This document shows positions 21,383 to 62,699 of a stretch of DNA of 64,000 nucleotides, in pieces. Position numbers and translations under genes: made by a program. Every line of letters begins with the position of its first letter. The first letter of the stretch is position 1. Source of the stretch: an uncultured Eubacteriales bacterium (GTDB lineage: Bacteria; Acidobacteriota; Aminicenantia; Aminicenantales; UBA8522); NCBI GenBank assembly GCA_964445305.1, contig CAYUKK010000005.1, positions 6,614 to 70,613 on the forward strand, in the 5' to 3' direction. The notes under the pieces were generated by a model. That model made no database searches, was not told the origin of the DNA, and saw nothing but the letters and a program-made list of their open reading frames with translations.

Positions 21383-21423
21383 AATTTCCTAAAAATATGA
21401 ATTGAACTGTTATGATGGCCATT

Positions 21424-32162: not shown

Positions 32163-32181
32163 ATGTATAATAAGGGCCTCC

Positions 32182-43764: not shown

Positions 43765-45129
43765 TCAAAGTTTCTCGACGCGAACTTTCAGTCCCTCCAG
43801 AACGGCGACGACCTTCACTCGACTGCCCCGAGGGATCATGGTCGTCGCTTCGGCGTTCCAGATCTCCCCATGGACAAAGACTTTCCCCTCCGGGTTCAAA
43901 TCTGTTCGGGCCACCCCAACTTCGCCGATGAGTCCCTCCCGGCCGGTGTGAACTTTGCGTGTATGGGCCCGGATGACGAGGAAAACCAGGAAGAGGAAAA
44001 TGAGCGAGAGAGCTACGGCCATGGGGACGATGAACCTTAGGCTTGGCCGAAGCTCTGGGACCGGGGCGTTGATGAGCATGATCGAGCCGAGGACCATGGC
44101 GATAATCCCTCCTACGGATAGGATTCCATAACTTTGAACTTTCACTTCGAGGATAAAAAGGCCGATGGCCAGAAGAATTAAAATAAGGCCGACATAGTTG
44201 ATGGGCAGGATCTGGAAGGAAAAGAAAGCGAGCAAGAGGGAGATCCCGCCCAGGACGCCGGGAAGGATAGCGCCCGGGTTAGCAAACTCAAAATAAAGGC
44301 CGAGGAGCCCGAGCATGAGAAGGATATAAGCCAAGTTAGGGTTGGAGATGGTGAGAAGGAATTTTTGGCGGGTGGACATCGGGATGTTGAGGACAGGCTC
44401 TTCCTTGAGGCGAAGGGTAAGCTCTTGTCCGTCAAAGCGCCGGATGGTCTTCTGGTCAAAGTGGGTGAAGATTTCCTGTTCGCTGCTGGCGATAAAGTCG
44501 ATGAGGCCCTTATCCAGCGCTTCTTTTTCCGTGTAGGACAAGCTCTGGCGGACAGCATCTTCGGCCATGCGGACGTTCCGCCCTCTTTTCTCGGCCAAAG
44601 TCTTGATGTAGGCTGCGGCGTCGTGGGTGATTTTCTCCTCCATCGTCTTATCCATGGTCTGTCCGGTGATGGAGATCCCGACAGGATGAGCTGCCCCCGT
44701 GCTTGTTCCTGGAGCCATGATGAACAGGTCGCTGGCGATAGCAATGAAAAAGCCAGCCGAGGCAGCCCGGGCACCGCTCGGGCTGACGTAAACGGCCACC
44801 GGCGTTCGCGCAGCCAGGATGCGGGTGATGATCTCGCGCATCGAACTATCGAGGCCGCCGGGGGTGTTCAAGACGATGAGCACCAGGCGGGCGTTCTCTT
44901 TTTCTGCTCTGTCGATGGTCATGGTGATGTATTCTGAAGTAATCGGGTGGATCGGCGCGTCGACCGTGATTTTCAGGATCGAGGCGAGGCTGGGAAAAGA
45001 ACAGAAAAACAGAAGAAAAAGGAAACACAGCAGCCAGGAATTCTTTCTCACTCTATTTCCATTATAGGAGGTGCAACAGGTCAAGTCAACAACAATCGCT
45101 GATAAGAGTATTCGGATGATTTCATACAT
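43765..45129 (-). CDS. NfeD-family membrane protein (ClpP-class serine protease domain plus C-terminal OB-fold), stomatin partner
   Basis: 454 aa. LNTPGGLDSSMREI (ClpP-like) and C-terminal GSRVKVVAVEGLKVRVE OB domain. Adjacent to the SPFH gene as in nfeD-stomatin operons. Confidence 0.7.
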   Translation of the reverse strand: MYEIIRILLSAIVVDLTCCTSYNGNRVRKNSWLLCFLFLLFFCSFPSLASILKITVDAPIHPITSEYITMTIDRAEKENARLVLIVLNTPGGLDSSMREIITRILAARTPVAVYVSPSGARAASAGFFIAIASDLFIMAPGTSTGAAHPVGISITGQTMDKTMEEKITHDAAAYIKTLAEKRGRNVRMAEDAVRQSLSYTEKEALDKGLIDFIASSEQEIFTHFDQKTIRRFDGQELTLRLKEEPVLNIPMSTRQKFLLTISNPNLAYILLMLGLLGLYFEFANPGAILPGVLGGISLLLAFFSFQILPINYVGLILILLAIGLFILEVKVQSYGILSVGGIIAMVLGSIMLINAPVPELRPSLRFIVPMAVALSLIFLFLVFLVIRAHTRKVHTGREGLIGEVGVARTDLNPEGKVFVHGEIWNAEATTMIPRGSRVKVVAVLEGLKVRVEKL

Positions 45130-45462
45130 ACAGTCCTAGAAGTGCCCCACAAAAAAGGGCGATCTTTCGCTGACTCATTGGATATCTGCCAGAGACATCG
45201 ATTTTCATCTGGATAGGCTAAATTTGGGCTGATTTTTTGGTTACAATGGGGTCTACTCACTAAATGAGAGGAGAATCTCACTCGGAGAGTTTCCAGAGGA
45301 AAGCCCATGGATTGTGCCAGAATCGCCGCAAAATTGCGAGAGCAAATCGTCCAATTCTCGGGGGAACTTTCTTCTGGACTTCCGAAGGGCGGGCCTGGAA
45401 CCCGCGGACAAGCAAAAAGCGCCGGAAATCACCCTGACTTCTCCATTCGGTTAAAGAGAGAA

Positions 45463-45783
45463 TCACAAAAAATATTCAGCGGGGGCCTCGGTGGCCATCA
45501 GAAGCTCCTGATAGACGATGCGGTGGGGGATATAGAGAAGAAGTGTCTCCTGCATCCACTCACTTGACACTCCTCCAGCCTCTCGGCGTGGCAAGAAAGA
45601 CAGAACCCCCGGGTGCGGTAGGAGAAAATCATGAGGCGCTCCACATGGCATTAGGGACAGCGAATGCGGGAAACCCACGACTCGGGTGGCCGCAGTCAGG
45701 CGTCGTTGCGAGGGGCGAAGCGACGCGGGAATCTTGTTTCCCGGGCGAGGCACGACGGGATTACGATGGCTCTGTGGCCTCAT
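45463..45783 (-). pseudogene. remnant of an IS200/IS605-TnpA- or RAYT-like Y1 transposase gene (copy A; C-terminal end only)
   Basis: Ends ...LLLYIPHRIVYQELLMATEAPAEYFL*. This shares the (I/V)VYQE(L/F)L...AEY C-terminus with the copy at 53485-53889 and with fragments at ~51095 and ~60050. No intact HUH motif. Confidence 0.3.
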
Positions 45784-46178
45784 GATGACCTGCGGTCAGT
45801 TCTATAATGGCCGGCCGAAGGAACTCATAATCCTTCTCGAAGCGCGACTTATACCCAGCAAGAAATTTATCCAAGTAATGAAACAACACTCGGTAGAGGA
45901 TCGTCTGTTTGGGGTGCCGAAGGCGATAGTTTCCAACTATGACAGGAGAATGGCCTCAAGAAAGGGGCCATTGTTATGGGGCCAGCCGCTCTTCCTGAAA
46001 AGAGGGAAGGAGTCCCCCTCAGGAAAACAGATTCCAAGCCATAAACTATCCACCTAAATTGACGCCCAGCCTAGAGAATAGACACGCTAGCAGACTAGCG
46101 GAATCGTCATCGGCGTCGAGGCCATAGACGCTAAGGCTGAACGAGGATGAATGCATCGTCATTGAAATCAGGTACAGC

Positions 46179-46739
46179 TTACATGTTTAGCAATAACCTC
46201 CGGAGTTCGTTGCCCAAATCTTGAACCCTAGTCACTTTAAGGGCTTTGCAAAGGGCCTTGATAAAAGGATCGCTCATAACATCTTCTAAAGCCTCAGGTG
46301 AAAAAAGGCTGGGCTCCATAACCACTCCTCGGCTTTGTTCCCCGCACGAATTAATGGGACATGACTTCAGCCCCCTGCAATCCTGTTGGCCGCAACCGTT
46401 TTTATCACAAGATTTTAGAGGGATGGAAAGAGTCGTGCCACTACGCAGCTCGATGAAGAGACCACATTTCTCACCACCACCAGGATCGGGAATAAAGCCG
46501 GTCGGGAGGCCACCGAATTCGCTCAAGAAAATCTCATCCCTCGGGAAAAGTAGCGCTTTGATCATTTTTGCTTTAGTCGATAGAGCGCCGATGCGGACCG
46601 TAGCTTCCAATTCGGCTTTTGAGACTCGGGTTTGAGCTGAGATCAGACCAGCTTTTGTGGCACCCACGCCTGCTAGCCCAGCCGAAAGCTGCGCCAACTT
46701 GCTGAGAACTTCTCTTCTCGTCAATCGATTGTTTTTCAT
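46179..46739 (-). CDS. Tat-signal Cys-pentad-repeat protein, paralog 1 (putative substrate of the adjacent radical SAM/SPASM enzyme)
   Basis: 186 aa. N-terminal RREVLSKLAQLSAGLAGVGA (twin-Arg plus hydrophobic region). Repeats CDKNG/CGQQD/CRGLKS/CPINS/CGEQS. Conserved C-terminal SDPFIKALCKALKVTRVQDLGNELRRLL. Confidence 0.6.
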   Translation of the reverse strand: MKNNRLTRREVLSKLAQLSAGLAGVGATKAGLISAQTRVSKAELEATVRIGALSTKAKMIKALLFPRDEIFLSEFGGLPTGFIPDPGGGEKCGLFIELRSGTTLSIPLKSCDKNGCGQQDCRGLKSCPINSCGEQSRGVVMEPSLFSPEALEDVMSDPFIKALCKALKVTRVQDLGNELRRLLLNM

Positions 46740-46778
46740 TGTTTTCGCCTTTAAAGATTTTTGTCTTATTAGATTCGA

Positions 46779-47336
46779 TTAACGGACCAAAAGCCTTCGG
46801 AGCTCGTAGCTCAGACCTTGCGCTGTTGTCACCTTAAGTTGCCTGCAAAGGGCAAGAATGAACGGGTCGTTCATGATCTGTGATAATTCTCTTTCGGAAA
46901 AAATGTTTGATTCACCCGTGAGCATCCCTTGCTTCGGGCAGTAATTTTCCTCACACCCTGACAACTTCGAGCATTTCTGATCTTCGCACCAGTTATAATC
47001 ACAGTCGGCCAGATTGCCACATTTCTGTTTAGAACACGTCTGGCCCTCGAAAAAAAAGTCACATTTTTCTCCTCCCGGGAATGCAGAGAACATGCCCAGA
47101 GGAACACGGCCGAATTCCGCCTGGAAGACATCACGTTGGGGAAAGAGCAGCACTTTGATCGCCTTAGCCATCGCCGCTTCGGCTTTGACGCCAGTGAGGC
47201 TTTCCAAGTCCTTTATTCCGATTCGCGTCTGAGCCCATGAGCTTGCAGGCTTGAGACTGCTGACGCCGCCAAGCAGAGCCAGAAGCTCCATCAATCGCTT
47301 AAAAGCTTGACGCCTGGTAACCTTTTGATTTCTCAT
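46779..47336 (-). CDS. Tat-signal Cys-pentad-repeat protein, paralog 2
   Basis: 185 aa. TRRQAFKRLMELLALLGGVS. Repeats CSKQK/CGNLAD/CDYNW/CEDQK/CSKLSG/CEENY/CPKQG. C-terminal NDPFILALCRQLKVTTAQGLSYELRRLL. Confidence 0.6.
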   Translation of the reverse strand: MRNQKVTRRQAFKRLMELLALLGGVSSLKPASSWAQTRIGIKDLESLTGVKAEAAMAKAIKVLLFPQRDVFQAEFGRVPLGMFSAFPGGEKCDFFFEGQTCSKQKCGNLADCDYNWCEDQKCSKLSGCEENYCPKQGMLTGESNIFSERELSQIMNDPFILALCRQLKVTTAQGLSYELRRLLVR

Positions 47337-47339
47337 TAT

Positions 47340-48734
47340 TTACCCTCCTTTGAAATTTAGTTTTTTTAGGTTGCGGTCCTTATCGGCTGCCTGATATAGC
47401 TCGACAAGGGCCCAAAACTTTTGCGATATCTCCAATTCTCTGCTCATTCTTTTCAAGCAGTAATAAAAGAAAATATTTTCATCAAGATAATATTTCCAGG
47501 TGTGGCAGCTCACTTTCCCCGTCTTTCCGTAGACATAAGGACATCCTCCCATGCAGATTGGCAGGAGCTTGCAGGAGGCGCATTCGAGGTCAAATGGGTT
47601 TCGCTGCCGCCACCTTTCGAGATTCTTCTGCCAGTCTGCCGAGGCCGACTCGAGGAGGTGTCCGACCTCTGCGTGCGATTCAGCTACCTCGTTCCAGCAT
47701 TTAACAATGCCGCCGCGCGGGGTGATGGCGTAGGCGCATTCATGATCCGCCATACAGAAAATATTTCGGCTTTTCGGCACACCAAAAGAGCGGAAGCCCC
47801 GCCTCGCCATTTCGATAGAGGTTTCGAGCTCGAGCAGGGAAAAGTCGTCCTCGCTTAGGCACCATCCGGAGATATCCTGGCAGACCGATGTATAAGCGTA
47901 CGTACGACCTATGTAGAAGCCAACACGCTCTTTTAATGCCTCGCTCTCCAGGATCTCCATTAGATCTAGAATATGATCCTTGTTTGTTTCATCGACGTTC
48001 ATCCGGATGTGGATTTTGAGCTTCGAAGTCGCCTCATGAATATTTTTTAAAATTCTATGGAATGTTCCTCTGCCGTCGGCGAGCGGCCGCCTCCGGTTAT
48101 GAACCGCGGGGGGCCCATCGAGCGTGACTTGGATATGGCTGATCTTGAGTTGGGCCAGCTTTTCAGCGGTCTTGAGGTCAAGCAGGTATCCATTAGTCAC
48201 CATGTCAGCGCTGTAATCAGCTCCGCAGTTCTGGCAGATTTCGATAAACTTTTCCGAAAGGCGTTCGATTAACGACCGGAAGAGCAACGGCTCGCCCCCA
48301 AACCAGGTGACATTGAGCGATTTATGGCTGAACATCCTTTCTTGGACAAATCGGATAACCGCGTCTTCAACGTTTCCGGCCATCGAGGCCGGGTTCCTCT
48401 CTTGGTAACAATAGACGCACCTGAAATTACAGGCCAGGGTGGGGATGATGGTCATGCTCAGGACGCTCTGATCGGTGCACCCCATCTTGTAGTTCTCCTT
48501 CAAAGAGGCGATTTCATCGGCGTCGTCAGGGATCAGGAATCCGTGGTTGATCAGAGCATTCAGAATTTGCGTTGAATTCTTTGCTTTCCAATCTCGGTTG
48601 GGGTTATATAGAATCCGTTTAGCCAGACCAGCTTCGTAGCCTCTTAAAGCAAGGAGCGAAAGAGTATAGAAATTTAGGAAGAGCGTTGTTCCATTGGGAA
48701 GTCTAAGACAATAGTTATACAAAGAAGCTTTCAA
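47340..48734 (-). CDS. radical SAM / SPASM-domain peptide- or protein-modifying enzyme with a ~95-aa N-terminal RRE-like extension
   Basis: 464 aa. CNFRCVYCYQ (CX3CX2C). C-terminal SPASM cysteines CASCKLLPICMGGCPYV. 3-nt and 7-nt gaps to the flanking paralog genes. Confidence 0.8.
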   Translation of the reverse strand: MKASLYNYCLRLPNGTTLFLNFYTLSLLALRGYEAGLAKRILYNPNRDWKAKNSTQILNALINHGFLIPDDADEIASLKENYKMGCTDQSVLSMTIIPTLACNFRCVYCYQERNPASMAGNVEDAVIRFVQERMFSHKSLNVTWFGGEPLLFRSLIERLSEKFIEICQNCGADYSADMVTNGYLLDLKTAEKLAQLKISHIQVTLDGPPAVHNRRRPLADGRGTFHRILKNIHEATSKLKIHIRMNVDETNKDHILDLMEILESEALKERVGFYIGRTYAYTSVCQDISGWCLSEDDFSLLELETSIEMARRGFRSFGVPKSRNIFCMADHECAYAITPRGGIVKCWNEVAESHAEVGHLLESASADWQKNLERWRQRNPFDLECASCKLLPICMGGCPYVYGKTGKVSCHTWKYYLDENIFFYYCLKRMSRELEISQKFWALVELYQAADKDRNLKKLNFKGG

Positions 48735-48741
48735 AGTCCGG

Positions 48742-49299
48742 CTACCTCCGAGCGCTCATCATGTTGAGGAGCTCCTGCGAAAGCTGTTCAGCCGTAGTGA
48801 CATTGAATTCCTTGAAGAGGGCTTTGACAAACGGGTCGGATTTGTGCATGTTCAAAAAATCCTTTGAGCTTGAATCGATATACATCGTGCAGGTCAGGCC
48901 AGTGCAGTTCTGTTTTGAACAATCATTCTCATCGCAGGACTTCAGACCGCAGGTCTGGTTCACACATCCATTTTTCCCACAGGAAGAAGACTGCATGGAG
49001 GATGGTGTCGGCGAGAAAAAGTCGTCACATTTTTGAATCACCCCAAGATCTCCCGATCCCGCCATCAAGGGTGCTCGTCCGAACTCATTGATATAGATTT
49101 CCCGCGTCCCTATAACCAAGATCTTGAGAGATTTTGTCTCTCTGGATAGGGCCTGTGCTTTGGCCAGAGCATCGAAATTGATGCGTCTCGTCTGAGCGAG
49201 AAAGGCCCGAACCTGGGTAGCACTCAGGCCAGCGGCCAGACCGATGATCTTGATCAGACGAGAGATGGCTTCTCTTCTTGAAAGGTGGTTAACTCTCAT
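48742..49299 (-). CDS. Tat-signal Cys-pentad-repeat protein, paralog 3
   Basis: Start set at MRVNHLSRREAISRLIKIIGLAAGLSA (SD AAGGAG 9 nt upstream), giving 185 aa. Repeats CGKNG/CVNQT/CGLKS/CDEND/CSKQN/CTGLT/C. C-terminal SDPFVKALFKEFNVTTAEQLSQELLNMM. Confidence 0.6.
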   Translation of the reverse strand: MRVNHLSRREAISRLIKIIGLAAGLSATQVRAFLAQTRRINFDALAKAQALSRETKSLKILVIGTREIYINEFGRAPLMAGSGDLGVIQKCDDFFSPTPSSMQSSSCGKNGCVNQTCGLKSCDENDCSKQNCTGLTCTMYIDSSSKDFLNMHKSDPFVKALFKEFNVTTAEQLSQELLNMMSARR

Positions 49300-49789
49300 C
49301 AGAATGCTCCTTGGTGAATCATAATGAATCCTATTAATAAGAGACAGAAAACCGCTTTCCCATCTCACTCGAAGGAGAAAATTTTGTTGATTAGGACTTC
49401 ACAACTATCCACCGTTTGGCTCTGAATTTGCTGCTCGGCCCAGAAGATTAGATATTGGGAAAATGATGATTTGATGCCTCTCCTCGGCAAATATAGGAGA
49501 TTTCTTTTCGGCTGTGGTAACTGGGAGGCATCTTAATTATCATTTTCCTGTTTAGCCATCGCCAAGAGATATGAATCACGAAAAAAATGGATGTCAAAGA
49601 CAATTAAAAGCAGTACCTAGTGGGCGAAAATGCATCATAAGCCGCCTCGGCGCCGGGAAAATGCTGAAAATCAGGGGGACATTTCCTTCTGGTCAAAGGA
49701 AAGATTATGAAAAATAATAGGCCGAAGCCTTGGAGTCCAAGAAGAATCCCGGGAGACCCTATGAGGCGGTGGGGGCTTCGAGGCGATAA

Positions 49790-50150
49790 AGGTCAGGTTG
49801 AGGTGGTTGATGTTCCTGTTCACGACCGCAGTGTCTGTCAAGAAGGCGATGATCTTCATCATGGCGCCCCACTTGGGGCAGGTCGAGGGGTCGATTTCAA
49901 AAACCTTGAGGATCATCTCGGCCCAGCCTCGGCGGGGACGGGCTGGAGCTCCTCTTCGACAATACAAAGAGGAAAGAGTGCGAGGCTTGACTTGCGGACC
50001 TTGCCCTGATGGGCGTTGGCATACAACCCGTAATAACGCACCGCGACCTGACCCTTGTCGGGAATGTGGGAGGCGACCCGGGCGATGAACTCTGGGTAGT
50101 CTATCTGCTTCGCCTCTTGGTTGCTTTCCCCACATCCGTGGCAGGAGCAT
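49790..50150 (-). pseudogene. IS91-family (Y2 HUH) transposase C-terminal fragment, frameshifted and N-terminally truncated
   Basis: Two overlapping frames give ...DYPEFIARVASHIPDKGQVAVRYYGLYANAHQGKVRKS and then ...WAEMILKVFEIDPSTCPKWGAMMKIIAFLTDTAVVNRNINHLNL. This matches the IS91-type C-terminus (RYYGxYxN ... CPxCGxxMxIIAxI ... HLGL). No HUH/Y2 catalytic part remains. Confidence 0.5.
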
Positions 50151-50436
50151 CTGTTGGCGGCTCTTCTTGATGAACCCGGCATCGCTCGCGACGTCCCCGT
50201 CTGGAAGTTCATGTTTCCTGCGACTGGAGGGGAAATCAGATTTTTCGACCCCCTCGGTGTCATTCCCAGGCGTGAGTGAGGGTCCGCCCACCAGGATTTT
50301 TTTCGAGATCTTCTCCCGTTTTTCCAAAGATTTGGAGATTGTTAAGGCGTGACCCTAAAATTTGACAAATTAAATAATTTTAATATGAAATAATTGTATA
50401 ATAAAATTAATATTTCCTTAGTTGCGAGGTTATCAG

Positions 50437-50931
50437 ATGGAAATAGAAAAAATCCGATTTCTCAGAGAGAAGCTCCGTTATATGGAACGGCAGATGAGCG
50501 ACGCCTTCGGCCGCGATTCAGGTTGCTGCGGCCTGACCCTGGCCCAATGCCACAGCCTTCTCGAAGTCGGCTACAAAGGCAAGGTTTCGCTCGTCGAACT
50601 GGCCTCGAGCTTAAGTCTTGACACAAGCACGCTCAGCCGGATGATCCAGGGTCTCGTCCTCCTCGGCTTGGTCAATCGGGAGACAAGCGAGAAGGACCGC
50701 CGTTATGTCGTCATCTCCCTCACGAACCAGGGTCGCACAGCATTCGACGAAATCGAAGCGAGATTCAATTCCTACTTCACCCAGGTCATGGAGTTTATCC
50801 CTGCGGAAAAGCGGGAGGCCGTGATCGAGTCGATTGGGCTCTTCTCCGATGCGGTCAGAAAGCAGAGCGAGTTTTCCAGCTGTTGTCAGGCCGACGACGA
50901 TTTGAGCGAAAACGGAAACGCCACAGGATAA
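50437..50931 (+). CDS. MarR-family transcriptional regulator
   Basis: Start at MEIEKIRFL (SD GAGGT). Winged HTH LVELASSLSLDTSTLSRMIQGLVLLGLVNRETSEKDRRYVVISLTNQGR. Preceded by an ~80-nt AT-rich promoter region (50340-50420). Confidence 0.7.
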   Translation: MEIEKIRFLREKLRYMERQMSDAFGRDSGCCGLTLAQCHSLLEVGYKGKVSLVELASSLSLDTSTLSRMIQGLVLLGLVNRETSEKDRRYVVISLTNQGRTAFDEIEARFNSYFTQVMEFIPAEKREAVIESIGLFSDAVRKQSEFSSCCQADDDLSENGNATG

Positions 50932-51530
50932 AGGCGACCATCATGGAGGATTCAGAGATGGACCAAGAAAAAAGTCCCACCCTGGGTGAAAAAGGGGATA
51001 AGAAATTCGTTTTTCTGCTGTGCTGGCTAACTGAGTATCCGGGCATCAATTTCGCCTCATCCCATCGGAGGTGATGATAAATAGGGGCATCTTCGGATTC
51101 TACCAAGAACTGGTCGAAGTAATAGAACAACACCCGGTAGAGGAGGGGGCGCTCTTGACGCCGAGGTCTGGAGACTCCTGCCACAATAGAAGCCATAAAT
51201 CAAAAAACGGGCCAAGCCCAGGGACAGGACCTTCTCTGCCTGAGAGAGCGGCAAGAGCCCCAACCCGGAAGGACAAACCAGGTCTATGAAATGTCAAAAA
51301 AGCTCTTATATTGCAATCAAACGACTGGATCCCGCTTTCCCAATCAAATGTGAGAATCGTTCTTTGAGCGGCCGGTCTCTCTTTGCGGAGATGGTCGGAC
51401 GGTGATTGTCGACGGCAGGCCGAAGAGAGTCGTCTTCACGGTGACTGAACAATTTGCTCTCAAGTGATTTCCCTCCCAACGGATAGCATGAGCCCGAAAG
51501 GAGGGACGGCCAATTAGAGTGTATCCCGCG

Positions 51531-52787
51531 CTAAAAGATGCGGAAGATGTTGAAACCGACCCGGAAATCGCCGTCTCTCAGACTCAAATCGCCCCCGGGG
51601 AGGTATTGAGCAGCGGTCAGGCCGATCGAATTGGTGACAAAAAACTGGAATACATGCCCGCCAATATTCTTTTCAACGCCCAGTCCCCAGCCAGGATAAC
51701 GATCGTTGTAGCCGGCCAGATGTGGAACCCATTCTGCGATGACGGAGACTTCGTCGAAGACCACGAAGCGCCCTCCGATCCCCAGGGCGAAGGTGCCTTC
51801 CGAATCCGGTTCCCAGAAATTGGTATTGGAGGAAAACGCCGGAACGAGCAGGAGTGAGACCCGGTCGTTGAGCTGGCAGGACAGGCTCACCAGCGCACTG
51901 AGCCGGAACCGGCCTGACCATTCTGCCCCGGGGGGCTCATCCTGGCTAACCAGGCTTCCCCCGGTGTGGAGAGAGGCTGAAAAGGGGAGGGAGCCGTTTC
52001 CTCCCTGTTCAAGGAAGGCCCAATCGACGTTGAATTCCCATTCCTGATAGAGCCTGCTTCGTCCGATCGTCATCATCAGGTCATCTGTTATGCCGTAGCC
52101 GAAGCTGAAGAGGATGTAGGCCGTTCCGTCGAGACCGAAGAAAGAATTCCAACCGCTGGAGACAGCCGGTTGAAAACGGTGCGATATGCGAAACAGGAAA
52201 TCCCCTTTGCCTGGGGTTACGGTTGTCGGTAGGTTGACCAGCCTGGTTCCCCAGAAGACGGGTCTGGAATATCGTCTGGGATTGGAGCTTTGGGCTGGGC
52301 TCTTGCTTTTTAGATTCGGCTGTCTGAACTCGGGGCCGCGGCTAATGAAACCGGGATTGAGAATACCGTTTGCGTCGGTGGAGCTTGCGGCCAGGCTCTT
52401 TATCCACTCCTCGATTTGGCGGATTTGCTCCTCAGTCAAGGGATCATGGTTTAGGGGCATGCGCTTGCCGACAATCCCGGCCGCTCCTTTGACCTTTGCG
52501 ATTAGGTCGCTTTTTTCGGGCGCACCTGGTTCGACAATCTTGAGTTCAGCCTTCTTCAGGCTTGATATCCCGAGAACCGAAGCGAGGAGCGTTTCTTGTT
52601 CCAGGCTTAGGTTGGCCGAAGGGTTTTTGCCCGAATGACAACCTGCGACACTGCAACTTTGCTTCATTATGCTCTTGACTGTGGCCAGAAGATTTGTCGG
52701 AGAATCTCCAGGCCCCTGGCTGTAAAGAGGCGAGCTCAGTGCGAAAAGCACCGTGACCTTGATAATCAACAGGACCTTGGTTTTCAT
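51531..52787 (-). CDS. exported protein with an N-terminal PSCyt1-like cytochrome-c-type domain (CX4CH) fused to a C-terminal beta-barrel (terminal Phe)
   Basis: 418 aa. Signal peptide MKTKVLLIIKVTVLFALSS. MKQSCSVAGCHSG ... GKRMPL ... EEQIRQIEEWIKSLA. Glycine/aromatic-rich C-terminal half ending GFNIFRIF. Confidence 0.5.
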   Translation of the reverse strand: MKTKVLLIIKVTVLFALSSPLYSQGPGDSPTNLLATVKSIMKQSCSVAGCHSGKNPSANLSLEQETLLASVLGISSLKKAELKIVEPGAPEKSDLIAKVKGAAGIVGKRMPLNHDPLTEEQIRQIEEWIKSLAASSTDANGILNPGFISRGPEFRQPNLKSKSPAQSSNPRRYSRPVFWGTRLVNLPTTVTPGKGDFLFRISHRFQPAVSSGWNSFFGLDGTAYILFSFGYGITDDLMMTIGRSRLYQEWEFNVDWAFLEQGGNGSLPFSASLHTGGSLVSQDEPPGAEWSGRFRLSALVSLSCQLNDRVSLLLVPAFSSNTNFWEPDSEGTFALGIGGRFVVFDEVSVIAEWVPHLAGYNDRYPGWGLGVEKNIGGHVFQFFVTNSIGLTAAQYLPGGDLSLRDGDFRVGFNIFRIF

Positions 52788-52859
52788 CCGGCTACTCCTG
52801 TCATGGGGACTTTATTTTGCCAAGTAATCATTCCGGAAATTCGAGCCTTCCCCAAGGGT

Positions 52860-53294
52860 TCAATTATTCTTGGCCCCTTTGTTGATCCAGTTCTTAATGT
52901 TCTGGACGGAATTGGCGTTGAGAGCTGATCCGCCAAGGGGCATCCGGCCGCCGTTTGTCTGCCGGCCTTCGAGTTTGATGACGAGATAACTATTCGTAGC
53001 GTCGTTGGGGATAACCCGCCTTTTCCCCGGTTCTTGGGTTGAGGGCACGTCGACGAGGTTGGCATAAGACTGCCCCTGGAGAAGAATCAATCCCGCCGCA
53101 GCGCTGTTACCGTGGCAGCTTGATGAAATGCAGCTCTGGCTGAAGATCGGCTGAATATCTGAGGCGAATGAGGGATCCTCTTTGACTATGGAGGGGGGCT
53201 GGGGACTGGTGGGGGAATAGCTGCCACAGTGATAGAGAATGACCGCTGCAAGGATAGCTAGGATTGCTATAACGGGCCACGATTTTATGTTCAT
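52860..53294 (-). CDS. exported PSCyt1-like cytochrome-c-type domain protein (CX4CH), paralogous to the N-terminal domain of the upstream gene
   Basis: Start at MNIKSWPVIAILAILAAV (SD AAGGAG), 144 aa. FSQSCISSSCHGN ... GGRMPL ... VQNIKNWINKGA. Confidence 0.5.
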   Translation of the reverse strand: MNIKSWPVIAILAILAAVILYHCGSYSPTSPQPPSIVKEDPSFASDIQPIFSQSCISSSCHGNSAAAGLILLQGQSYANLVDVPSTQEPGKRRVIPNDATNSYLVIKLEGRQTNGGRMPLGGSALNANSVQNIKNWINKGAKNN

Positions 53295-53484
53295 CAGGAG
53301 ACTCCTTATAAAATCTACAAATATTATAGGAATACTAGGAAAAAAAATCAAGTAGCCCTGGCAGAATAGTGGAGGACGGGTCAGGAAGCCGCAGATAGGT
53401 CTAAGAGCCCGGTAATCAGCCAGACCTTTCCTTTCGGGCGAACTGAAGATCATGAACAGTATTCAGCTAAGGTCTCAGCAGCCG

Positions 53485-53889
53485 TCAGAAATTCCTGATA
53501 GACGATATGCGGCACATGGGGCCTCTTGGCGATGAAGGCCAGCTTGAGGCAATGATTGATTTTGACCACCATGGATAATCAGTGGGGAAGGAGATGACCC
53601 ACATGATGCCTCTGCACTGGGCACAAATCAAGAGATTATCGTCGTCCACTTTTCGGACCATTTCGGCCCGGCTTTTGGTGGGGAGACCCAGGAGTATGAC
53701 CTCGAAGACCAGGAAAAGGATTCTTCGTTTCGGCAAAAAAGCCATGTAGTGAAGACCAACTCTCTTGAAAAGGATGGAAGCGATTCGATAAAGTTTGATG
53801 TATTCATCAGAAAAGTCTGCCGCATGGAAGACGGAAGCCCCATCACTACTGGATCCTGTTGGAATCCTATAGGACGGCAGGTGGGCCAC
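53485..53889 (-). pseudogene. degenerate IS200/IS605-TnpA- or RAYT-like Y1 transposase gene (copy B): HUH degraded to HYM, 1-nt indel before the catalytic-Tyr region
   Basis: 134-aa ORF. GLHYMAFLPKRR (cf. HVHLLVSIPPK). YPWWSKSIIASS (cf. LWSRSYFAGS). After a 1-nt frame correction the C-terminus reads ...PHIVYQEFLTAAETLAEYCS*, matching copy A. Confidence 0.35.
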
Positions 53890-54149
53890 TTCAGCGCTTT
53901 GTTGACAATAAAGGATATAGACCTAAAGAATCTTCAAATTTGTCGAACTTTGGTTAAGCCAAGGGCCCCGAATTTTCGATTACCAAGGGCTGCCCGTTTC
54001 GACTGCTGTGATTCGGTTACTGTTTGGGAAAGTGGCCGCCGCTTTGAGTCTTCGACAGAAGAATTAAGGTAAAAACACAAAAAACAAAAGGATAAAGGCG
54101 GCAAGAAATTTATACAGCCGAAGTCTGTGTCTCGCAAGTCTTCAGGAAA

Positions 54150-54332
54150 TCAGCGTGATAAATAGGCTAAGACTGCATGAATAATGGCCGTAACGAGCAG
54201 GAGAAGTCCCAGGCGGCGGTGCAAGATGAAATTCACTTTCAGATACCTTTTCCCGCTGCCGATTTGAAAAAAAATCAGCAGCAGGTTGATAATACCCAGA
54301 ATCAGGACAAAAGAAACTCCCCCGATGGTCAT
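54150..54332 (-). CDS. small two-TM membrane protein (hypothetical)
   Basis: 60 aa, two hydrophobic helices. Immediately downstream of the SOR-like gene. Confidence 0.3.
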   Translation of the reverse strand: MTIGGVSFVLILGIINLLLIFFQIGSGKRYLKVNFILHRRLGLLLLVTAIIHAVLAYLSR

Positions 54333-54350
54333 TTTATTTTCCTCGTTTTT

Positions 54351-54722
54351 TTATTCCTCAATTTTTATTTTTACTCTGGCCGGGCCGGCGCTGCCGTGCA
54401 GGTTGCAGTTAGCTTCAGCCTCTATTTCCGTTTCTTCTTTAACAATCAGTTTGACTTCTCGGGTAAAGTTCTCCGCCTCCGGCCGGCTGTTTGAAGAAAA
54501 ATTCCAGCGGGCGATTTCCTTCTTGTTGGACATGACTACAAGCCGGTTGGTGTGATGGAGGCTACTGTTTCCCCGGTGGGTGACGTGGATGATGATGGTC
54601 ACTTCCTCACCGGCTTTAACTGAGGCCGGCGCCTTGATGGAGACCGCTGACTTATTGGCCAGGACCGGCGTTATCAGCAGACTTAAAATAAGCAAGGAAC
54701 CGAATAAGAATCTCTCTTTCAT
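54351..54722 (-). CDS. signal-peptide protein with a superoxide-reductase (desulfoferrodoxin Fe-domain)-like fold
   Basis: 123 aa. Leader MKERFLFGSLLILSLLITPVLA. GEEVTIIIHVTHRGNSSLHH aligns with SOR GELVKVKVQVGKEIPHPNTTEHH. C-terminal CNLHG matches the SOR CN(I/L)HG Cys/His ligand motif. Confidence 0.45.
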   Translation of the reverse strand: MKERFLFGSLLILSLLITPVLANKSAVSIKAPASVKAGEEVTIIIHVTHRGNSSLHHTNRLVVMSNKKEIARWNFSSNSRPEAENFTREVKLIVKEETEIEAEANCNLHGSAGPARVKIKIEE

Positions 54723-54986
54723 GCCATCTCCTTTGTAATTGCTAAAAATTGTCGTTGAAGTGATATTATACCCGACTTTCGCTTATGACGAATAGATCGC
54801 ATTCAATCAGGTAAAATGTTACCGAAAGACGCGCCGCCCCGCCACTGCTCTTAGCTTCATCCACTCTGCCTTCAGTCACCGAGAAAATCTCCATCTTCTC
54901 TAATAAACTTGGGATTTCGGTTCAGCCGTTTGCCGAAGAAATCCGCTGGCCAGGGCCAAAGATTGGACTGATATTTTTTAGAGTTG

Positions 54987-56069
54987 CTATCTCTTAGGGA
55001 CCGGCGGGTAGTAGATCAAAAGATAAGAGACGCGCTCGGATTCGCCGATGTAGATTTCGCCGTTCGGTCCGACGGCCAGAGCGCTGATGTCATAGCAGAC
55101 CCAGTTTTTGGGGAAATGGACCATCGGGATACCCAGGTCCTTGACTTCTCCGGTCCGGGGATTCCAGCGAAAAAGATGAGAGTTCTTTCCCGGGCTTCCG
55201 GCGGCACCGTAGAGGACTCCCTCTTTCCCAAAAGCCAGGGCTCTGATCCGGTGGTCGGAAATTGGCCGGCCGTAGCCGATGATTTTAAGAGTCTTGGTGT
55301 TCAGGCTGAAGATTGTTCCCAGGAGCGTACCGCCGTAAATCGTTTTCTGGCCATCGAACACGGTAGAGTCAAGAGCATTGAGGAACTCCATTCCCTTCGG
55401 CGACGGAAGCTGGAGGTCAAGCGTCTCCACCCTTTCGTTGGCGATCGAATAGCGGAAGATATGACCGTTTTTCGCCGAGCCGAAGATATGGCCGCGGCTG
55501 TCGAGGGCCATAGCATTGGATTTTTCAGCGCCCTCGATGGCCTGAATCTTCCGGCTCGTCCTTTTTTCTATATCGATTTCGACGAGAGCGGATGTCTTCC
55601 GGGTCAGAGCGAAAATCTTTCCAACCCCTGGCTCCAAGACAGCACAGGCCGCATCTTCATCCAGCGCAAAATCAAGGAATTCGATAGGATTGACTTGGTA
55701 TTTCCAAAGGACGGAGAACTCACCTTCAGGAGAATAACGAAAGAGTCGTCCGGAAGGGTTGACGATTCCCCAGATGACTCCGCTCCCGTCTTTCATCAGC
55801 AGCCGGCATTCCGCATCTTCTCCCAGAACGCCGATGTCGACAACGTGTTCGGCTGCCGGGCTCGGATCATAATAAAACAAATGGGATTTTTTTCCTGAAG
55901 TTGCGCCGTAGATTTTTTTCTGCTTCTCCCCGGGGACAAGCGCCGTGATCGCCGATTCGCCGTTCGGGATGGGTGGCGTAACTCCATAATGGCCGAGTTC
56001 TCGGAGGGCCAGCGTTCCTTCGGTGATGAAAGCGAAGGCCCCATCGCGAAAATCGGCTGTGCCGGTCAT
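54987..56069 (-). CDS. beta-propeller-fold hypothetical protein (paralog 1)
   Basis: Start at MTGTADFRDGAF (SD AAGGAG). Repeated ~45-aa blades with G-x-hydrophobic patterns (IYGGTLLGTIF, VLYGAAGSPGK). Confidence 0.4.
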   Translation of the reverse strand: MTGTADFRDGAFAFITEGTLALRELGHYGVTPPIPNGESAITALVPGEKQKKIYGATSGKKSHLFYYDPSPAAEHVVDIGVLGEDAECRLLMKDGSGVIWGIVNPSGRLFRYSPEGEFSVLWKYQVNPIEFLDFALDEDAACAVLEPGVGKIFALTRKTSALVEIDIEKRTSRKIQAIEGAEKSNAMALDSRGHIFGSAKNGHIFRYSIANERVETLDLQLPSPKGMEFLNALDSTVFDGQKTIYGGTLLGTIFSLNTKTLKIIGYGRPISDHRIRALAFGKEGVLYGAAGSPGKNSHLFRWNPRTGEVKDLGIPMVHFPKNWVCYDISALAVGPNGEIYIGESERVSYLLIYYPPVPKR

Positions 56070-56153
56070 GATTTCCGACTCCTTAAGGTGGTAGCTCGGC
56101 TCGGCCCCACGTTCGTTTTCGCGCTGGGGATGATTTTTTTCTTTATTCGTCAT

Positions 56154-57329
56154 TCATCTCCTCCAGTCGAGAGAGTCAAGATCGACCATGAGAAGTCGGG
56201 GAACGGCCTTCATGTTGACCTCGGCAAAATAAAGGGTCCGGCCGTCTGGTCCCAGGGCTCCCTCAGAAAGCCAGGCAGTCGCATTATCTCCGAAATCGAG
56301 ACGCGCAACGACCCTGCGCTGACCACTCTCGATATCCAAGACCACAAGGTTCGTCGGTTCCCAGATGGTGTTGCACCCGTAAAAAAGCCAGCGGTTTTCA
56401 TAAAGGACCGGAGCCTGGACATAAGGGGGCGTCCAGTCGCGGCCGTTCCATCCCCCCGGCCAGCCGAAGCCGTAGTCCTCAATAGCCGGCACGGGTCCCG
56501 CATCCGGGTTAATCCGGAAAATATGGCCGTCGTAATATCCCGTAGCACAGATGAAATCGTCCCGAAATCTTTTGGCGTTGAAAAAGAAATTGTAGAGGCG
56601 CTCGCGGCCCGGAATGCCAGGGACGCGAAGCGGGAGGTCCTCGAACTCATCTTTTTCGGGCGAATAGCGGAAGAAGCGGCCTTCGTCGTAGGATCCGTAG
56701 ATGAGGCCTCGCGCATCGGCGAAAATTTCGAACCCGCCCCAGGTTCCAATTCGGCCCACAAGCCGTGACTGACAGGAGGCAAGGTCGTATTCATAGAGAC
56801 AGTGCCGCGGGTAGCTAACGAGATAGGCCCTGTTCAGGCGTTCGTTGATCTCCATTGATCGGCAGCCCTCATGAGGGATGGCGAGGCCAACGTATTCGGC
56901 TTCACCCGTGGCCAGTTTGACCCGGAACATCTGCGCTCCGCGAAACCCGTAAATCGGGTCGCCAAAAGTCCCGTTCACCTCGAAAAGCTTTTCCCCTAAG
57001 CAAGGGGCCGTACAGTGGCTGACTCCGTAGAGAAAGCCGTCTTCTGTTTCCCGAAGGCAGGTGTGGATCTTGCTCTGAGGGACCCGGCCAGAGTCATAAG
57101 GATCGTCGGCCAGCTCGCCGATATCGAAAAGGTCCCAGAGGCGTTTCTCCTCCGGGTCGAAGCGGAGAAGATGAGCGCTCGAAGCCCGGCCCTCGCTACA
57201 GCTTGAAAAGTAGATCCGACCGTCGCTGGCCGAATGGACGGCCCAAAGGCTGTCGTGGTTCGGGTCGACACTCCAGGTCGAAATTTTGAAAGCGCCGAAT
57301 TCAGAAAGATGAAATTCAACCCTTTTCAT
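56154..57329 (-). CDS. beta-propeller-fold hypothetical protein (paralog 2)
   Basis: 391 aa. Colinear with paralog 1 (FHLSEFGAFKIST vs DFRDGAFAFITEG). Confidence 0.4.
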   Translation of the reverse strand: MKRVEFHLSEFGAFKISTWSVDPNHDSLWAVHSASDGRIYFSSCSEGRASSAHLLRFDPEEKRLWDLFDIGELADDPYDSGRVPQSKIHTCLRETEDGFLYGVSHCTAPCLGEKLFEVNGTFGDPIYGFRGAQMFRVKLATGEAEYVGLAIPHEGCRSMEINERLNRAYLVSYPRHCLYEYDLASCQSRLVGRIGTWGGFEIFADARGLIYGSYDEGRFFRYSPEKDEFEDLPLRVPGIPGRERLYNFFFNAKRFRDDFICATGYYDGHIFRINPDAGPVPAIEDYGFGWPGGWNGRDWTPPYVQAPVLYENRWLFYGCNTIWEPTNLVVLDIESGQRRVVARLDFGDNATAWLSEGALGPDGRTLYFAEVNMKAVPRLLMVDLDSLDWRR

Positions 57330-57342
57330 GGCTCGGCGAGTC

Positions 57343-58200
57343 TTATTTTAGCATCAGGAGGACGATGCCTGCCAGGCCGATGACAATTCCGAGATAGCCT
57401 GTCGGTCTGATTTTCTCTCTAAAAAAAAGAAGAGAGAGGAGCACAGCGGCGACGACCGGAGCCGAAAGGACGACGGGAAAGACAATAGTCTCCGGAAGCT
57501 TCGTCAGGGCTTTGAGGGTAAAAAAGTTACCGGCCACGCTTCCGGCTGCCGCCAGCGCTCCGAAAGAGAAGACGTTTCCGTCCAGCCGGATCTTCTTCGC
57601 GGCGAAAAAAATCATGAATGCGAGCGCTCCGAAAAGAAAGGTCAGGAAAAGGTAGAACCATAAATTGAGGGCGCTCAGCCGCACAGCCGCGGCCTGAGAT
57701 AATTGAGGAATTCCGGCCAGCAAGAACGCCGCCGCCAGGAAGAGCAGCCACCTTAGCCAAAGCCCTGTCCTTTTATTTTCAGCCGTCGAGCCGGAGGTTG
57801 AAATAAGGGCGATGCCGATGACGATAAAGATGATCCCGAGAGCCAGGATTGTCCCGAATGATCTCTTCCAGAAAATGACAGAAAAGACGACGGGGATGAG
57901 GAACGTCATCGTGTAAATCGAAATGGTCAGAGCATAATTTCCGATTTTGAGAGCACTGAGGAAAAAGAAATAGGCTACCGCGCCGCCGACGCCTCCTCCG
58001 GCGGCGAGGAGGACGACCGGAAGCGAGATGTGGAGCGGTTGGCGCAGGAAAAGGAGAAAAAGACAGCAGAAAAAAGAGGCCATCGCGAACAATGAGCCTG
58101 TCAGCGTGGCTGAGGAGTGTCCTTTGAGGCTTCCCATTTTCATGACGAAATTCGTAACGACAAACCCGGCGACAACCAGCGCGAGAAAGACCCAGCCCAT
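57343..58200 (-). CDS. DMT-superfamily (EamA-like) transporter
   Basis: 285 aa, ~10 TM helices, two EamA-like halves. Confidence 0.65.
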   Translation of the reverse strand: MGWVFLALVVAGFVVTNFVMKMGSLKGHSSATLTGSLFAMASFFCCLFLLFLRQPLHISLPVVLLAAGGGVGGAVAYFFFLSALKIGNYALTISIYTMTFLIPVVFSVIFWKRSFGTILALGIIFIVIGIALISTSGSTAENKRTGLWLRWLLFLAAAFLLAGIPQLSQAAAVRLSALNLWFYLFLTFLFGALAFMIFFAAKKIRLDGNVFSFGALAAAGSVAGNFFTLKALTKLPETIVFPVVLSAPVVAAVLLSLLFFREKIRPTGYLGIVIGLAGIVLLMLK

Positions 58201-58313
58201 GTTCTCTCTCTCCTTTTCAAGCCGAGATCGACCAGGATTTCGTTTTCAATTCGTGCCTCCCGCCAAATTTTCCCGGAGGCAAGAAAATGGGCCACCGCTC
58301 TTCGCCCCGGATC

Positions 58314-59057
58314 TCAGTCATCGAAGTTCACCAAAGTCATGATGTTTTCCGAAAAGACCATCCGACGTTCTTTTTCCGTTAGCGGCAGGAGACGGATCTT
58401 TTCGATTTCGAGCAAAACCTCCTCCTTCTGGGAAAAGCCGAGGTCAGTGCCAAATAAAAGTTTTCCGATAGGAATAGTAGATATCATCTCTTTGACCGCG
58501 GAAAAGGGAGAAGCAGCCGGGCAGAGATAGATATTCTGATACTTCTTGGCCACGGCCAGGGCATCGAGCCAGAGGTCCTTAAGCCCCGCCTCGCCGAGAA
58601 TGAGTTTGGCTTCGGGAAATTTTCGGGCCAGGTTGCCGATCTGAGTCGGGCAAGCATAGGGAGGGCTACCGCTGTGGAAAATAATTGGAATGTTGAGGCG
58701 AATCGCCTCCTCGACGACCTTGAGGAAATAGGCATTGGTCAATGAAAACGCCTGCAGCCAGGGATGGACCTTGAGTCCCCTCATCCCTAACTTGAGGACC
58801 GCTCGCCGCAGGTCTCTTACCGCCTGATCCCCCATGTGAGGATCCACCGTAGCGAAAGGATAAAGACGGCCTTCGAATCCCCTGGTTAGAGAAAGAAGAC
58901 GATCGTTTGCGCCCCGGGCGTCAAAGAACCCCTCCAGAGTGAAGACGCAGGCCTTCTCGATTCCGGTCTCGTCCATGATGCGCACGAAATCGCGCGGTCG
59001 GATCCCCCGGAGATTCAGCCAGCGGCCGAAAAGATGGGTGTGGCAGTCGATGATCAT
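58314..59057 (-). CDS. amidohydrolase-2 family metal-dependent hydrolase (TIM barrel)
   Basis: 247 aa. MIIDCHTHLF... metal-binding His-x-His start, with downstream His/Asp. Confidence 0.65.
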   Translation of the reverse strand: MIIDCHTHLFGRWLNLRGIRPRDFVRIMDETGIEKACVFTLEGFFDARGANDRLLSLTRGFEGRLYPFATVDPHMGDQAVRDLRRAVLKLGMRGLKVHPWLQAFSLTNAYFLKVVEEAIRLNIPIIFHSGSPPYACPTQIGNLARKFPEAKLILGEAGLKDLWLDALAVAKKYQNIYLCPAASPFSAVKEMISTIPIGKLLFGTDLGFSQKEEVLLEIEKIRLLPLTEKERRMVFSENIMTLVNFDD

Positions 59058-59770: not shown

Positions 59771-60220
59771 GTCCTATCTCTTCCTTCAGCCTGATGTTCG
59801 GGTTCCGAAAGTCCGAATCACAGGCCGCTCATACTGATTTTTCCTCCAGCAAACAGAGAGGCCGGATATCCTTCGCCGCATAGCCCAGATGACTGGGCTG
59901 ACGCCATCCCTCAGCGTACTCAAACCGTTCCGACATGTCACCGACTTTGCGACTCATTTCTTTCATCGTCATGGGATAGGAACCCAGGCCATGGCTTCGA
60001 TCCAGCCAATCCTTTTGAAATGACAGCGGCCACCCGGCTGATTAGCTCCTGATGATAAAAGACGGCCAGGTCATCGACGAGGCTTTCGTGATAAACAGCT
60101 CCGATGGCGAAAATAACCATCTTTCCTCTTCACTCAAACCATCCTGCTTCTTCGTCGCCGGCATGGCTTCTTTCCTGATCCCACCTCATTCTCCTTTCCT
60201 GTCTGTCGAGAAAAGAGGAA

Positions 60221-62562: not shown

Positions 62563-62699
62563 GCCGCGGTCTCCTTTTGTCGGACGCGCCAGGACGCATC
62601 CGGATTCTTAAGTCTATTCAAGGGTAAGGGAGGATGTCAAACTCTTCGACACCACAGCTGCGCTTGCAAACCAAGCCGATTCTGATATTTTGGCGGAGA

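Follow-up and report, generated by a model that had tools for sequence, protein, structure and literature searches.

The region described here occupies positions 45130–54986 (9.9 kb) of a 64-kb stretch of contig CAYUKK010000005.1 (assembly GCA_964445305.1), hereafter the window, within which all coordinates are counted. It is a lineage-specific accessory patchwork in a chromosome of Candidatus Aminicenantes, as placed by homologues of the NfeD protein encoded at its left border. The NfeD of the closest species representative is 80–85% identical, and the core proteins of the closest sequenced relative share ~80–89% identity with those of the window. To our knowledge, this phylum has no cultured members. 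Read along the minus strand, the region runs from a superoxide reductase (SOR)-like gene and a 60-aa open reading frame (ORF) through a transposase relic (D), the genes for a small cytochrome-like protein and a DUF5777 protein, and a second relic (C). It then continues through a MarR gene on the opposite strand, relic B, a radical S-adenosylmethionine (rSAM) cassette in the order precursor 3, rSAM, precursors 2 and 1, and relic A, and ends at NfeD (Table 1). We distinguish four cargo modules beside the relics: (1) the rSAM/SPASM cassette with its three Cys-repeat proteins; (2) MarR with an AT-rich, probable control region; (3) the pair of CX4CH-cytochrome-like and DUF5777 proteins; and (4) the SOR-like protein with the small membrane ORF.

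All four transposase remnants belong to a single insertion sequence (IS) family, IS91, whose proteins combine a zinc-finger domain (Zn_Tnp_IS91, PF14319) with a Y2_Tnp domain (PF04986); all are on the minus strand and all are defective. Searches by tblastn with nine homologues returned exactly four minus-strand fragments, and none elsewhere in the 64 kb. The fragment of relic B, which a first-pass annotation made from the sequence alone had described as an IS91 C-terminus in two frames, is real and extends over 49.75–50.26 kb. It matches full homologues at tblastn E = 1e-38 to 1e-41, PF04986 directly at E = 3e-7, and the NCBIfam IS91 model over positions 272–322 of 356. Relic B alone retains the tyrosine motif RYYGLYAN, and it contains one frameshift and a degraded 3′ non-coding end. 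The other three relics align to proteins carrying both PF14319 and PF04986. The matching pieces of relic A cover residues 1–58 (45940–45767), the zinc finger at residues 58–96 (45686–45570), residues 93–114 (45588–45514), and the C-terminal tail at residues 315–334 (45528–45469), with a summed tblastn E of 1e-23 to 1e-27. These pieces lie in differing frames and contain stop codons, one of which breaks the zinc finger (RIRCP*CHVERLMIFSYRTRGFCLSCHAERLEE). Relic C retains the 5′ non-coding region and the start of the transposase, and relic D (E down to 4e-11) has one frameshift and an upstream limit that is approximate. The same assignments can be read by eye in six-frame translation, with IS91-type N-termini at 45.9 kb (YRLRHPKQTILYRVLFHYLDKFL) and 51.1 kb (RRQERPLLYRVLFYYFDQFL), an IS91 zinc finger (RIRCP*CH...FSYRTRGFCLSCHAERLEE), and an IS91 C-terminus at 53.6 kb (CAQCRGIMWVISF). 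A search with a composite of relics A and B yielded 930 matching proteins (best E = 1e-65); among the best-scoring matches listed, most carry PF04986, many also carry PF14319, and some are annotated as Aminicenantes transposases.

The first-pass annotation had placed three IS200/RAYT-like Y1 transposase remnants beside the IS91 fragment, which would make the region a graveyard of several families, one IS91 fragment with at least three Y1 remnants. Transposase-like remnants do lie at the places concerned (45.46–45.94, ~51.1, and 53.46–53.69 kb), and they belong to IS91. No Y1_Tnp match was found at E ≤ 1 in the minus-strand translations (three frames for A and D, one for B and C, plus strand unscanned) or at E ≤ 0.1 in the ORFs. 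All three sites align instead to IS91 proteins (N-terminus and zinc finger; N-terminus; C-terminus) and to IS91 non-coding ends. We regard the several-family reading as refuted, with a negligible residual probability, since Y1 is absent from the scans and IS91 homology explains all the sites. IS200/IS605 and RAYT elements are, like IS91, HUH-superfamily single-strand transposases, and this kinship may explain the misreading; they differ from the remnants here, which give no PF01797 signal and align to Y2-type IS91 proteins. Pfam searches of stop-masked minus-strand translations of the gaps (all three frames for A and D, one frame each for B and C) detected neither an IS91 nor a Y1 domain. The profile search was silent because the relics are too broken, and close homologues were needed to recognise them.

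Each IS91 copy contains deletions, frameshifts, or stop codons, and all are thus relics rather than active members. The HUH region is in none of the fragments, as the HPHLH of homologue P0084 is not covered by any of them. The relics share 68–87% identity over 31–96 nt, including a 31-nt stretch at 87% between A and C, and are either old or derived from diverged copies. Close homologues of this IS91 subgroup (P0001–P0120) are mostly defective themselves. Some are internally deleted 300–335-aa forms without the HUH region, and many distinct 166-aa ORFs start at the internal Met of KYMIRPLL and contain only the C-terminal third. Such C-terminal-only ORFs could possibly be products of rolling-circle transfer that lost their 5′ part, pieces of a split gene, or fragments that were domesticated. 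It may be speculated that the 5′-truncated relics B and D and the C-terminal-only ORFs in the databases arose through premature termination.

The non-coding ends of the elements are also recognisable. For ~85–90 nt past the stop codon, relics A and D, and B more weakly, can be aligned both with each other and with an independent metagenomic element (L105); they diverge beyond that distance. At the other end, ~190 nt upstream of the start codon are conserved among A, C, L105, and a further reference copy (L106). L106 is itself frameshifted and L105 internally deleted, and no intact element was recovered. The 3′ borders of A, B, and D and the 5′ borders of A and C in Table 1 were taken from these alignments. 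Relic A is a mini-IS91 of ~705 bp with both ends retained. This internally deleted element makes up most of the kilobase that had been taken to lack any convincing gene, the remainder being short intergenic spacers.

Table 1. Features of the accessory region and its borders (positions in the window; a dot marks features without strand)
Feature	Coordinates	Strand	Evidence and remarks
NfeD, last gene of the conserved left block	43765–45129	−	ORF listing, Pfam, NCBIfam
Left junction, intergenic, NfeD start to 3′ end of relic A	45130–45384	.	Synteny
IS91 relic A, mini element with internal deletion, both non-coding ends kept	45385–46090 (both approximate)	−	tblastn 45940–45469
Cys-repeat protein 1, 186 aa	46179–46739	−	Paralogy, weak CefA match; GC 0.494, codon fit −0.07
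Cys-repeat protein 2, 185 aa	46779–47336	−	Paralogy
Radical SAM/SPASM peptide maturase, 464 aa	47340–48734	−	Pfam Radical_SAM E = 1e-16
Cys-repeat protein 3, 185 aa	48742–49299	−	Met of two independent gene callers; longest ORF to 49368
IS91 relic B, transposase 3′ part (aa ~190–315 of 335-aa reference)	~49610–50267	−	tblastn 50143–49749
AT-rich block between relic B and MarR	50345–50425	.	21% GC
MarR-family regulator	50422–50931	+	Pfam MarR E = 3e-11
IS91 relic C, 5′ non-coding end and first 42 transposase codons (aa 1–42)	51065–~51390	−	tblastn 51184–51065, E ~1e-6
Cytochrome-c-like N-domain (CSVAGCH) and DUF5777 beta-barrel, 418 aa	51531–52787	−	Pfam DUF5777 E = 2e-54
Small cytochrome-c-like protein, CISSSCH, 144 aa	52860–53294	−	Met of independent gene callers
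IS91 relic D, C-terminal ~77 aa (aa 258–334) and ~90 nt 3′ non-coding	~53365–~53750	−	tblastn 53685–53456
60-aa two-helix membrane ORF	54150–54332	−	Pfam Ferric_reduct E = 1e-3, below cut-off; called in JGI assemblies
SOR-like protein, 123 aa	54351–54722	−	Pfam Desulfoferrodox (PF01880) 30.8 bits, cut-off 22.2; GC 0.497
Right junction, intergenic, ahead of propeller gene	54723–54986	.	Synteny
Propeller gene, first gene of the conserved right block	54987–56153		
Second tandem propeller paralogue	56154–57329		

On its left side the region adjoins a conserved block whose order in relatives is ...prfB-lnt-SPOR-SPFH-NfeD. In a sample of 80 related loci with 10-kb flanks around NfeD, the genes nearest NfeD on that side (SPFH, SPOR, lnt, prfB, and beyond) keep their order in 58–80 of the 80 relatives. 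None of the genes of window 45130–64000 lies within 10 kb of NfeD in any of the 80, and the relatives' own conserved gene set upstream of NfeD is missing from the entire window. The right block comprises the propeller pair, EamA, two amidohydrolases, DegT, and GFO/IDH, an order also found in three relatives (L101, L103, and L104). Homologues of the propeller gene show graded identities of 81, 80, 78, 77, 75, 74, and 73%, some of them labelled Aminicenantes. Past the propeller gene, island genes are absent from the three relatives with a continuing contig (L101, L102, and L104). These carry unrelated genes there, and the two gene sets seen are also unlike each other. The 184-kb contig of L103 is uninformative on this point, as it stops ~86 nt after the ortholog. 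Nucleotide similarity to the relatives is confined to the propeller gene, in a query that ran only to window 55100. Conservation of gene order in relatives had been named in the first-pass annotation as a check on its island reading, and the order is not conserved (0/80 near NfeD; 0/3 past the propeller gene). Its limits for the block required correction on the right, where both synteny and composition place the boundary at 54987 rather than 54130, ~850 nt further.

The left and right blocks are not neighbours in the relatives, where the adjoining DNA instead comprises ~18 kb or more of other genes, including housekeeping genes. Because the two flanking core blocks are not adjacent in relatives, a rearrangement was involved, and the region marks the junction of two core blocks rather than a simple insertion. 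The hallmarks of a classical genomic island are only partly present. The region resembles such islands in being lineage-specific and partly atypical in composition, and in carrying accessory genes with mobile-element debris. It differs from the integrase type, however, and does not belong to it: a tRNA scan of the whole 64 kb returned 0 tRNAs, an Rfam search of 44–56 kb gave no match, and no ORF put through Pfam matched an integrase. In addition, searches for island-bounding direct or inverted repeats gave only chance-level matches apart from a 31-nt trace common to relics A and C, and the site is a rearrangement junction.

Some IS91 debris was also observed near NfeD in another member of the group. 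One complete Aminicenantes chromosome (OY970261.1) contains two identically scoring NfeD loci (L007 and L008, at 0.43 and 2.26 Mb). In both, locus positions 12545–12636, ~1.2 kb downstream of NfeD, match relic A (its tail and 3′ end) over ~92 nt at 75%. In L008, positions 1899–2141 are an IS91 N-terminal fragment ~8 kb upstream of NfeD. IS91 debris near NfeD may therefore be recurrent in the Aminicenantes group.

The GC content of the window is 53.7%, in place of the ~58% that had been assumed for the genome, and falls to 50.6% in the flagged block against 54.2% in the remainder. Genes inside the block differ from those outside it in GC (Mann-Whitney p = 0.006) and in codon-usage fit to the flanks (p = 0.0016). 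The uniform composition that would have spoken against an island was not observed. Means for the flanking genes are GC 0.542 and codon fit 0.104 ± 0.050. The genes with atypical composition are those of the rSAM cassette (GC 0.48–0.50, codon fit −0.07 to 0.035), the small cytochrome gene (0.51, 0.012), and the SOR-like gene (0.50, 0.030). Corresponding values are 0.545 and 0.142 for MarR and 0.552 and 0.066 for the DUF5777 gene, either of which could be native DNA that was caught up in the rearrangement. Peaks in the 4-mer signature lie at 46–49.5 and 52–56 kb, with a host-like dip at 49.5–53.5 kb, and the deviation is still somewhat high across the propeller paralogues to ~59.5 kb. Two other GC dips (0.47–0.50) with strong AT-skew changes lie outside the block, at 21000–22500 and 31500–33000. 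Taken operationally, the region shows both features of a horizontally acquired island, being absent from the same position in relatives and, in part of its genes, compositionally distinct.

The rSAM maturase gene has a TTG start and sits between the second and third Cys-repeat paralogues. Its product aligns end to end (E = 1e-94 to 1e-63) with maturases of the CefA/CefB, TIGR04463, Clo7bot (TIGR04334), and ranthipeptide PapB types. The best NCBIfam matches, TIGR04334, TIGR04463, and CefB, all remain under their equivalog cut-offs (315.5 vs 600, 311.5 vs 525, and 212.9 vs 600), which places the protein outside the CefA/CefB, TIGR04463, and Clo7bot families. The Cys-repeat proteins likewise reach only 16–21 bits against CefA (cut-off 30). 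The system is related to these families without being a member of any of them.

Its putative substrates resemble those of CefA-type systems in their C-x4-C repeats and weak CefA matches. They differ from the short leader-core peptides of those systems in being ~185 aa long, with a Tat-like N-terminus (Tat, twin-arginine translocation) and with conserved domains flanking the repeat. In Cys-repeat protein 1, which shares 35–41% identity with its two paralogues, a C-x4/5-C repeat is combined with a twin-arginine-like N-terminus and, at the C-terminus, a conserved helix-like domain. Across the family, the N-terminus reads LTRREAxxRL...AAGLS...AQ (twin-arginine-like by eye) and is accompanied by a conserved domain (AKxIKxLxFPRRDVFxxEFGRxP), the repeat (NxCxxQxCxxLxxCxxNxCGxQ), and a conserved C-terminal segment (DPFVxALxxELNVTTSQxLSxEL). 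Three other loci (L096, 5371–7986; L098, 5412–8027; L099, 5211–7356) also have homologues on either side of the rSAM gene, and the flanking proteins across these loci are ~185–250 aa in length, not short peptides. The layout of the cassette suggests that cross-linking would take place in the cytoplasm before Tat export. The family is seldom encountered: a search of 1.84 billion clusters at E ≤ 1e-3 yielded 71 representatives.

Horizontal acquisition is well supported for the rSAM cassette, and for this cassette only. Outside its own population, the closest homologue of the maturase in a database of 5.8 billion clustered proteins is 54% identical, and the rSAM homologues that carry a taxon label are from Desulfobacteraceae, Deltaproteobacteria, and Myxococcota only. 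The Cys-repeat-rSAM-Cys-repeat arrangement recurs in unrelated contexts at 44%, 54%, and 64% GC, and one copy elsewhere is bracketed by Transposase_mut genes. We consider the cassette foreign because its best homologue stands at 54% where the flanking propeller and NfeD proteins reach 81% and 85%, its GC and codon usage are off-host, it coincides with a 4-mer peak, and its homologues occur in unrelated contexts.

The two proteins of the cytochrome/DUF5777 module differ in size and share the same cytochrome-like domain and its motif. The 418-aa DUF5777 protein has a hydrophobic leader at its N-terminus (judged by eye and not by a predictor). The small cytochrome ORF, if taken at 197 aa, extends into relic D. 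Cytochrome-type matches are weak (cytochrome c families at E ~0.05–0.07, and c551, sub-threshold). The cargo proposed in the first-pass annotation was correctly named as to rSAM/SPASM, Cys-repeat, MarR, SOR-like, and two CX4CH proteins, but the resemblance to PSCyt1 is sub-threshold (E = 0.058). The CX4CH motif (C-x3-[GS]-C-H) is invariant in the 14 metagenomic homologues that have the domain (9/9 large, 5/5 small), and the module also contains a c551-like Met-Pro region. Small cytochrome and DUF5777 proteins are paired at 60–80% identity in 5 metagenomic loci (among L085–L094) without other island genes. The pair may represent an outer-membrane haem module with non-canonical haem-attachment spacing.

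The SOR-like protein, a candidate superoxide reductase by its PF01880 score, retains the motif CNLHG and has a hydrophobic leader at its N-terminus (again judged by eye and not by a predictor). Sequence searches of the PDB with the SOR-like and DUF5777 proteins gave no significant match. The 60-aa ORF, which follows the SOR-like gene directly and precedes relic D, weakly matches positions 13–56 of 121 of the ferric-reductase transmembrane profile. It could be a truncated gene, the stump of a haem-b membrane partner cut by IS insertion.

MarR is the sole plus-strand gene in the block and accompanies neither of the other cargo modules that were traced in other genomes, the rSAM cassette and the cytochrome/DUF5777 pair. 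The AT-rich block ahead of it, ~80 nt long and pointed out in the first-pass annotation, is the lowest-GC 80-nt stretch of the whole 64 kb. Three overlapping sigma-70-like matches lie on the plus strand at 50333–50407, and the block is probably the promoter/operator region of MarR. If relics C and B had been one element, MarR would occupy the spot of the IS91 midsection, and it may either have replaced the transposase core or lie between two copies; no IS91 similarity was found between them (tblastn, E < 0.01), and their spacing is uninformative.

In its organisation the region resembles known IS91-type arrays. IS91 elements have no terminal inverted repeats and generate no target-site duplication (PMC13181058). 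They start at oriIS and stop at terIS, with termination failing in 1–14% of events so that DNA beyond terIS is carried along, and they insert with oriIS beside a short target tetranucleotide (PMC13181058). In common with IS91, IS801, IS1294, and ISCR elements, the subgroup found here has full homologues with both PF14319 and PF04986, what appear to be two distinct non-inverted ends, each conserved between copies, and no recognised flanking direct repeats. Target-site duplications were among the checks proposed in the first-pass annotation; no direct repeats beyond chance level flank the relics, which is consistent with the lack of such duplications in IS91. As in the ISCR arrays of complex integrons, all copies have one orientation and the cargo is found past the 5′ (terIS) end. 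Several differences are also evident. The subgroup shares only 28–37% identity with the IS91-family transposases of plasmids, the four copies are all dead and each has lost the HUH region, and no target tetranucleotide is recognisable. The cargo, moreover, does not consist of resistance or virulence genes, and its mobilisation is deduced from layout alone.

It is this layout that leads us to a history of assembly by IS91. In both complete units, a relic has its 5′ (terIS-side) end within 90–150 bp of the cargo, relic A in the case of the rSAM cassette and relic C in that of the cytochrome pair. On its far side, each cargo borders the following relic at that relic's 3′ (oriIS) end, which belongs to B for the rSAM cassette and to D for the cytochrome pair. 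The island is a mosaic of independent modules, because the modules recur elsewhere separately and MarR accompanies neither. We propose, with a probability of roughly 0.55, that the region is a lineage-specific mosaic at a core-block junction, built by IS91 activity and holding at least four unrelated cargo modules between four defective, same-orientation IS91 copies. Under this proposal, failed termination at terIS would lead to one-ended transposition that mobilises the adjoining cargo. Each insertion would place oriIS beside a short target left intact by the event, and successive units of cargo and IS could then stack head-to-tail at one site. Later internal deletion, truncation, and frameshifts would have destroyed the transposase genes and frozen the island. 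A fuller version of this history is tentative and, in our judgement, rather unlikely. It would see in the region a fossil record of serial one-ended IS91 transposition, with each unit of cargo and IS91 arriving beside the oriIS/target that remained from the copy before it, in which one unit imported a rare rSAM/SPASM system that cross-links ~185-aa Cys-repeat proteins in the cytoplasm prior to Tat export.

Several observations weigh against assembly by IS91. The locus contains neither an intact transposase nor an HUH motif nor any full-length copy, so that activity cannot be shown. Short palindromes at the putative oriIS ends fold no better than shuffled sequences (z = −0.35 to +0.5), and no common tetranucleotide can be read past the putative oriIS ends of A, D, and L105. 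IS91 relics do not accompany the cargo homologues found in other genomes, so that the link between IS and cargo is specific to this locus. The same orientation of all four relics has a chance probability of 1 in 8, and the minus strand in any case carries nearly all genes at 28–62 kb. The stacking model does not account for MarR, which lies between C and B on the opposite strand and is native in both GC and codon fit; the DUF5777 gene has a host-like GC and a lower codon fit within about one standard deviation of the flank mean. Finally, at the distance of the closest relative (~80–89% identity in core proteins), loss of synteny is not rare.

The principal competitor, unlikely in our estimate yet to be taken seriously, is that the IS91 copies are incidental. 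They would have inserted between the genes of an accessory region that already existed, at places where insertions are tolerated, and then decayed without delivering any cargo, the region itself having been assembled otherwise or consisting of native DNA joined by rearrangement. The intergenic position of every relic, the lack of IS91 association of the cargo homologues elsewhere, and the host-like features of MarR and the DUF5777 gene all fit this account. The low identity between relics over short stretches also points to separate old copies rather than one recent event. Incidental insertion leaves unexplained the exact placement of the cargo of both complete units, on the terIS side of one relic and with the oriIS of the next at the far border, and the occurrence of relics solely inside the block across 64 kb. 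The present data cannot separate it from stacking.

It is improbable that the region is instead ancestral to the lineage and was lost or relocated in the sampled relatives, its island-like appearance being a product of comparison with distant genomes. The distance of the closest species representative, the native composition of part of the block, and the fixation of the island at 99.2–100% identity in four independent samples would be in keeping with such a history. The rSAM maturase, however, reaches at most 54% identity in 5.8 billion clustered proteins beyond its own population, where neighbouring core genes show graded values of 70–81% with Aminicenantes homologues. The atypical GC and codon usage of the rSAM cassette, the small cytochrome gene, and the SOR-like gene, as well as transposon relics at every module border, also argue against ancestry. 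Still less credible is a metagenomic mis-assembly that joined unrelated contigs at repeated IS fragments. Several independent contigs do stop at ~55.6 kb in a propeller paralogue, and the contig of one relative stops just past the orthologous propeller gene. The same arrangement is nevertheless found, at 99.2–100% nucleotide identity and without indels, in four other assemblies (an ENA contig of 62 kb and contigs of 19.6 kb from JGI, 3.7 kb, and 5.3 kb). Independent ENA and JGI assemblies cover both junctions without gaps, the left one being spanned by L081 and L082 and the right one by L081–L084 (L084 to 56.6 kb). The IS fragments are also too diverged to act as assembly repeats, and there is no repeat of ≥25 nt. 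Mis-assembly was rejected because the four independent assemblies agree. Contigs from three samples (L081, L082, and L083) end at ~55.6 kb, inside the first of the two tandem propeller paralogues, a recurrent break that probably results from propeller paralogy or strain variation.

Decayed insertion sequences at variable synteny breakpoints are common in bacterial genomes, and the island itself is ordinary: an IS91-associated, decayed, mosaic genomic island in Aminicenantes, of an already known sort. The first-pass description of an old, eroded, horizontally acquired island can be retained as a mobile-element-associated accessory island; horizontal transfer is well supported for the rSAM cassette only, a single IS family is involved, and the island did not arise by simple insertion. 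The annotation of the locus is corrected to one IS91 lineage without IS200/RAYT elements, and its seemingly gene-less kilobase to a mini-IS91 with both ends. With its unusually legible layout, the region could serve as a natural example of IS91/ISCR-style capture outside Proteobacteria and antibiotic resistance. Most of the interest lies in the cargo, however, where two little-known modules are flagged as mobile modular units, namely the Cys-repeat/rSAM cassette with its twin-arginine-like signal and the CX4CH cytochrome-like/DUF5777 pair. The Cys-repeat family is rare, and an architecture of its kind is uncommon among rSAM substrates. If the cross-linking and export proposed above are true, the cassette would represent a protein-scale, exported analogue of the ranthipeptide/CefA ribosomally synthesised and post-translationally modified peptides.

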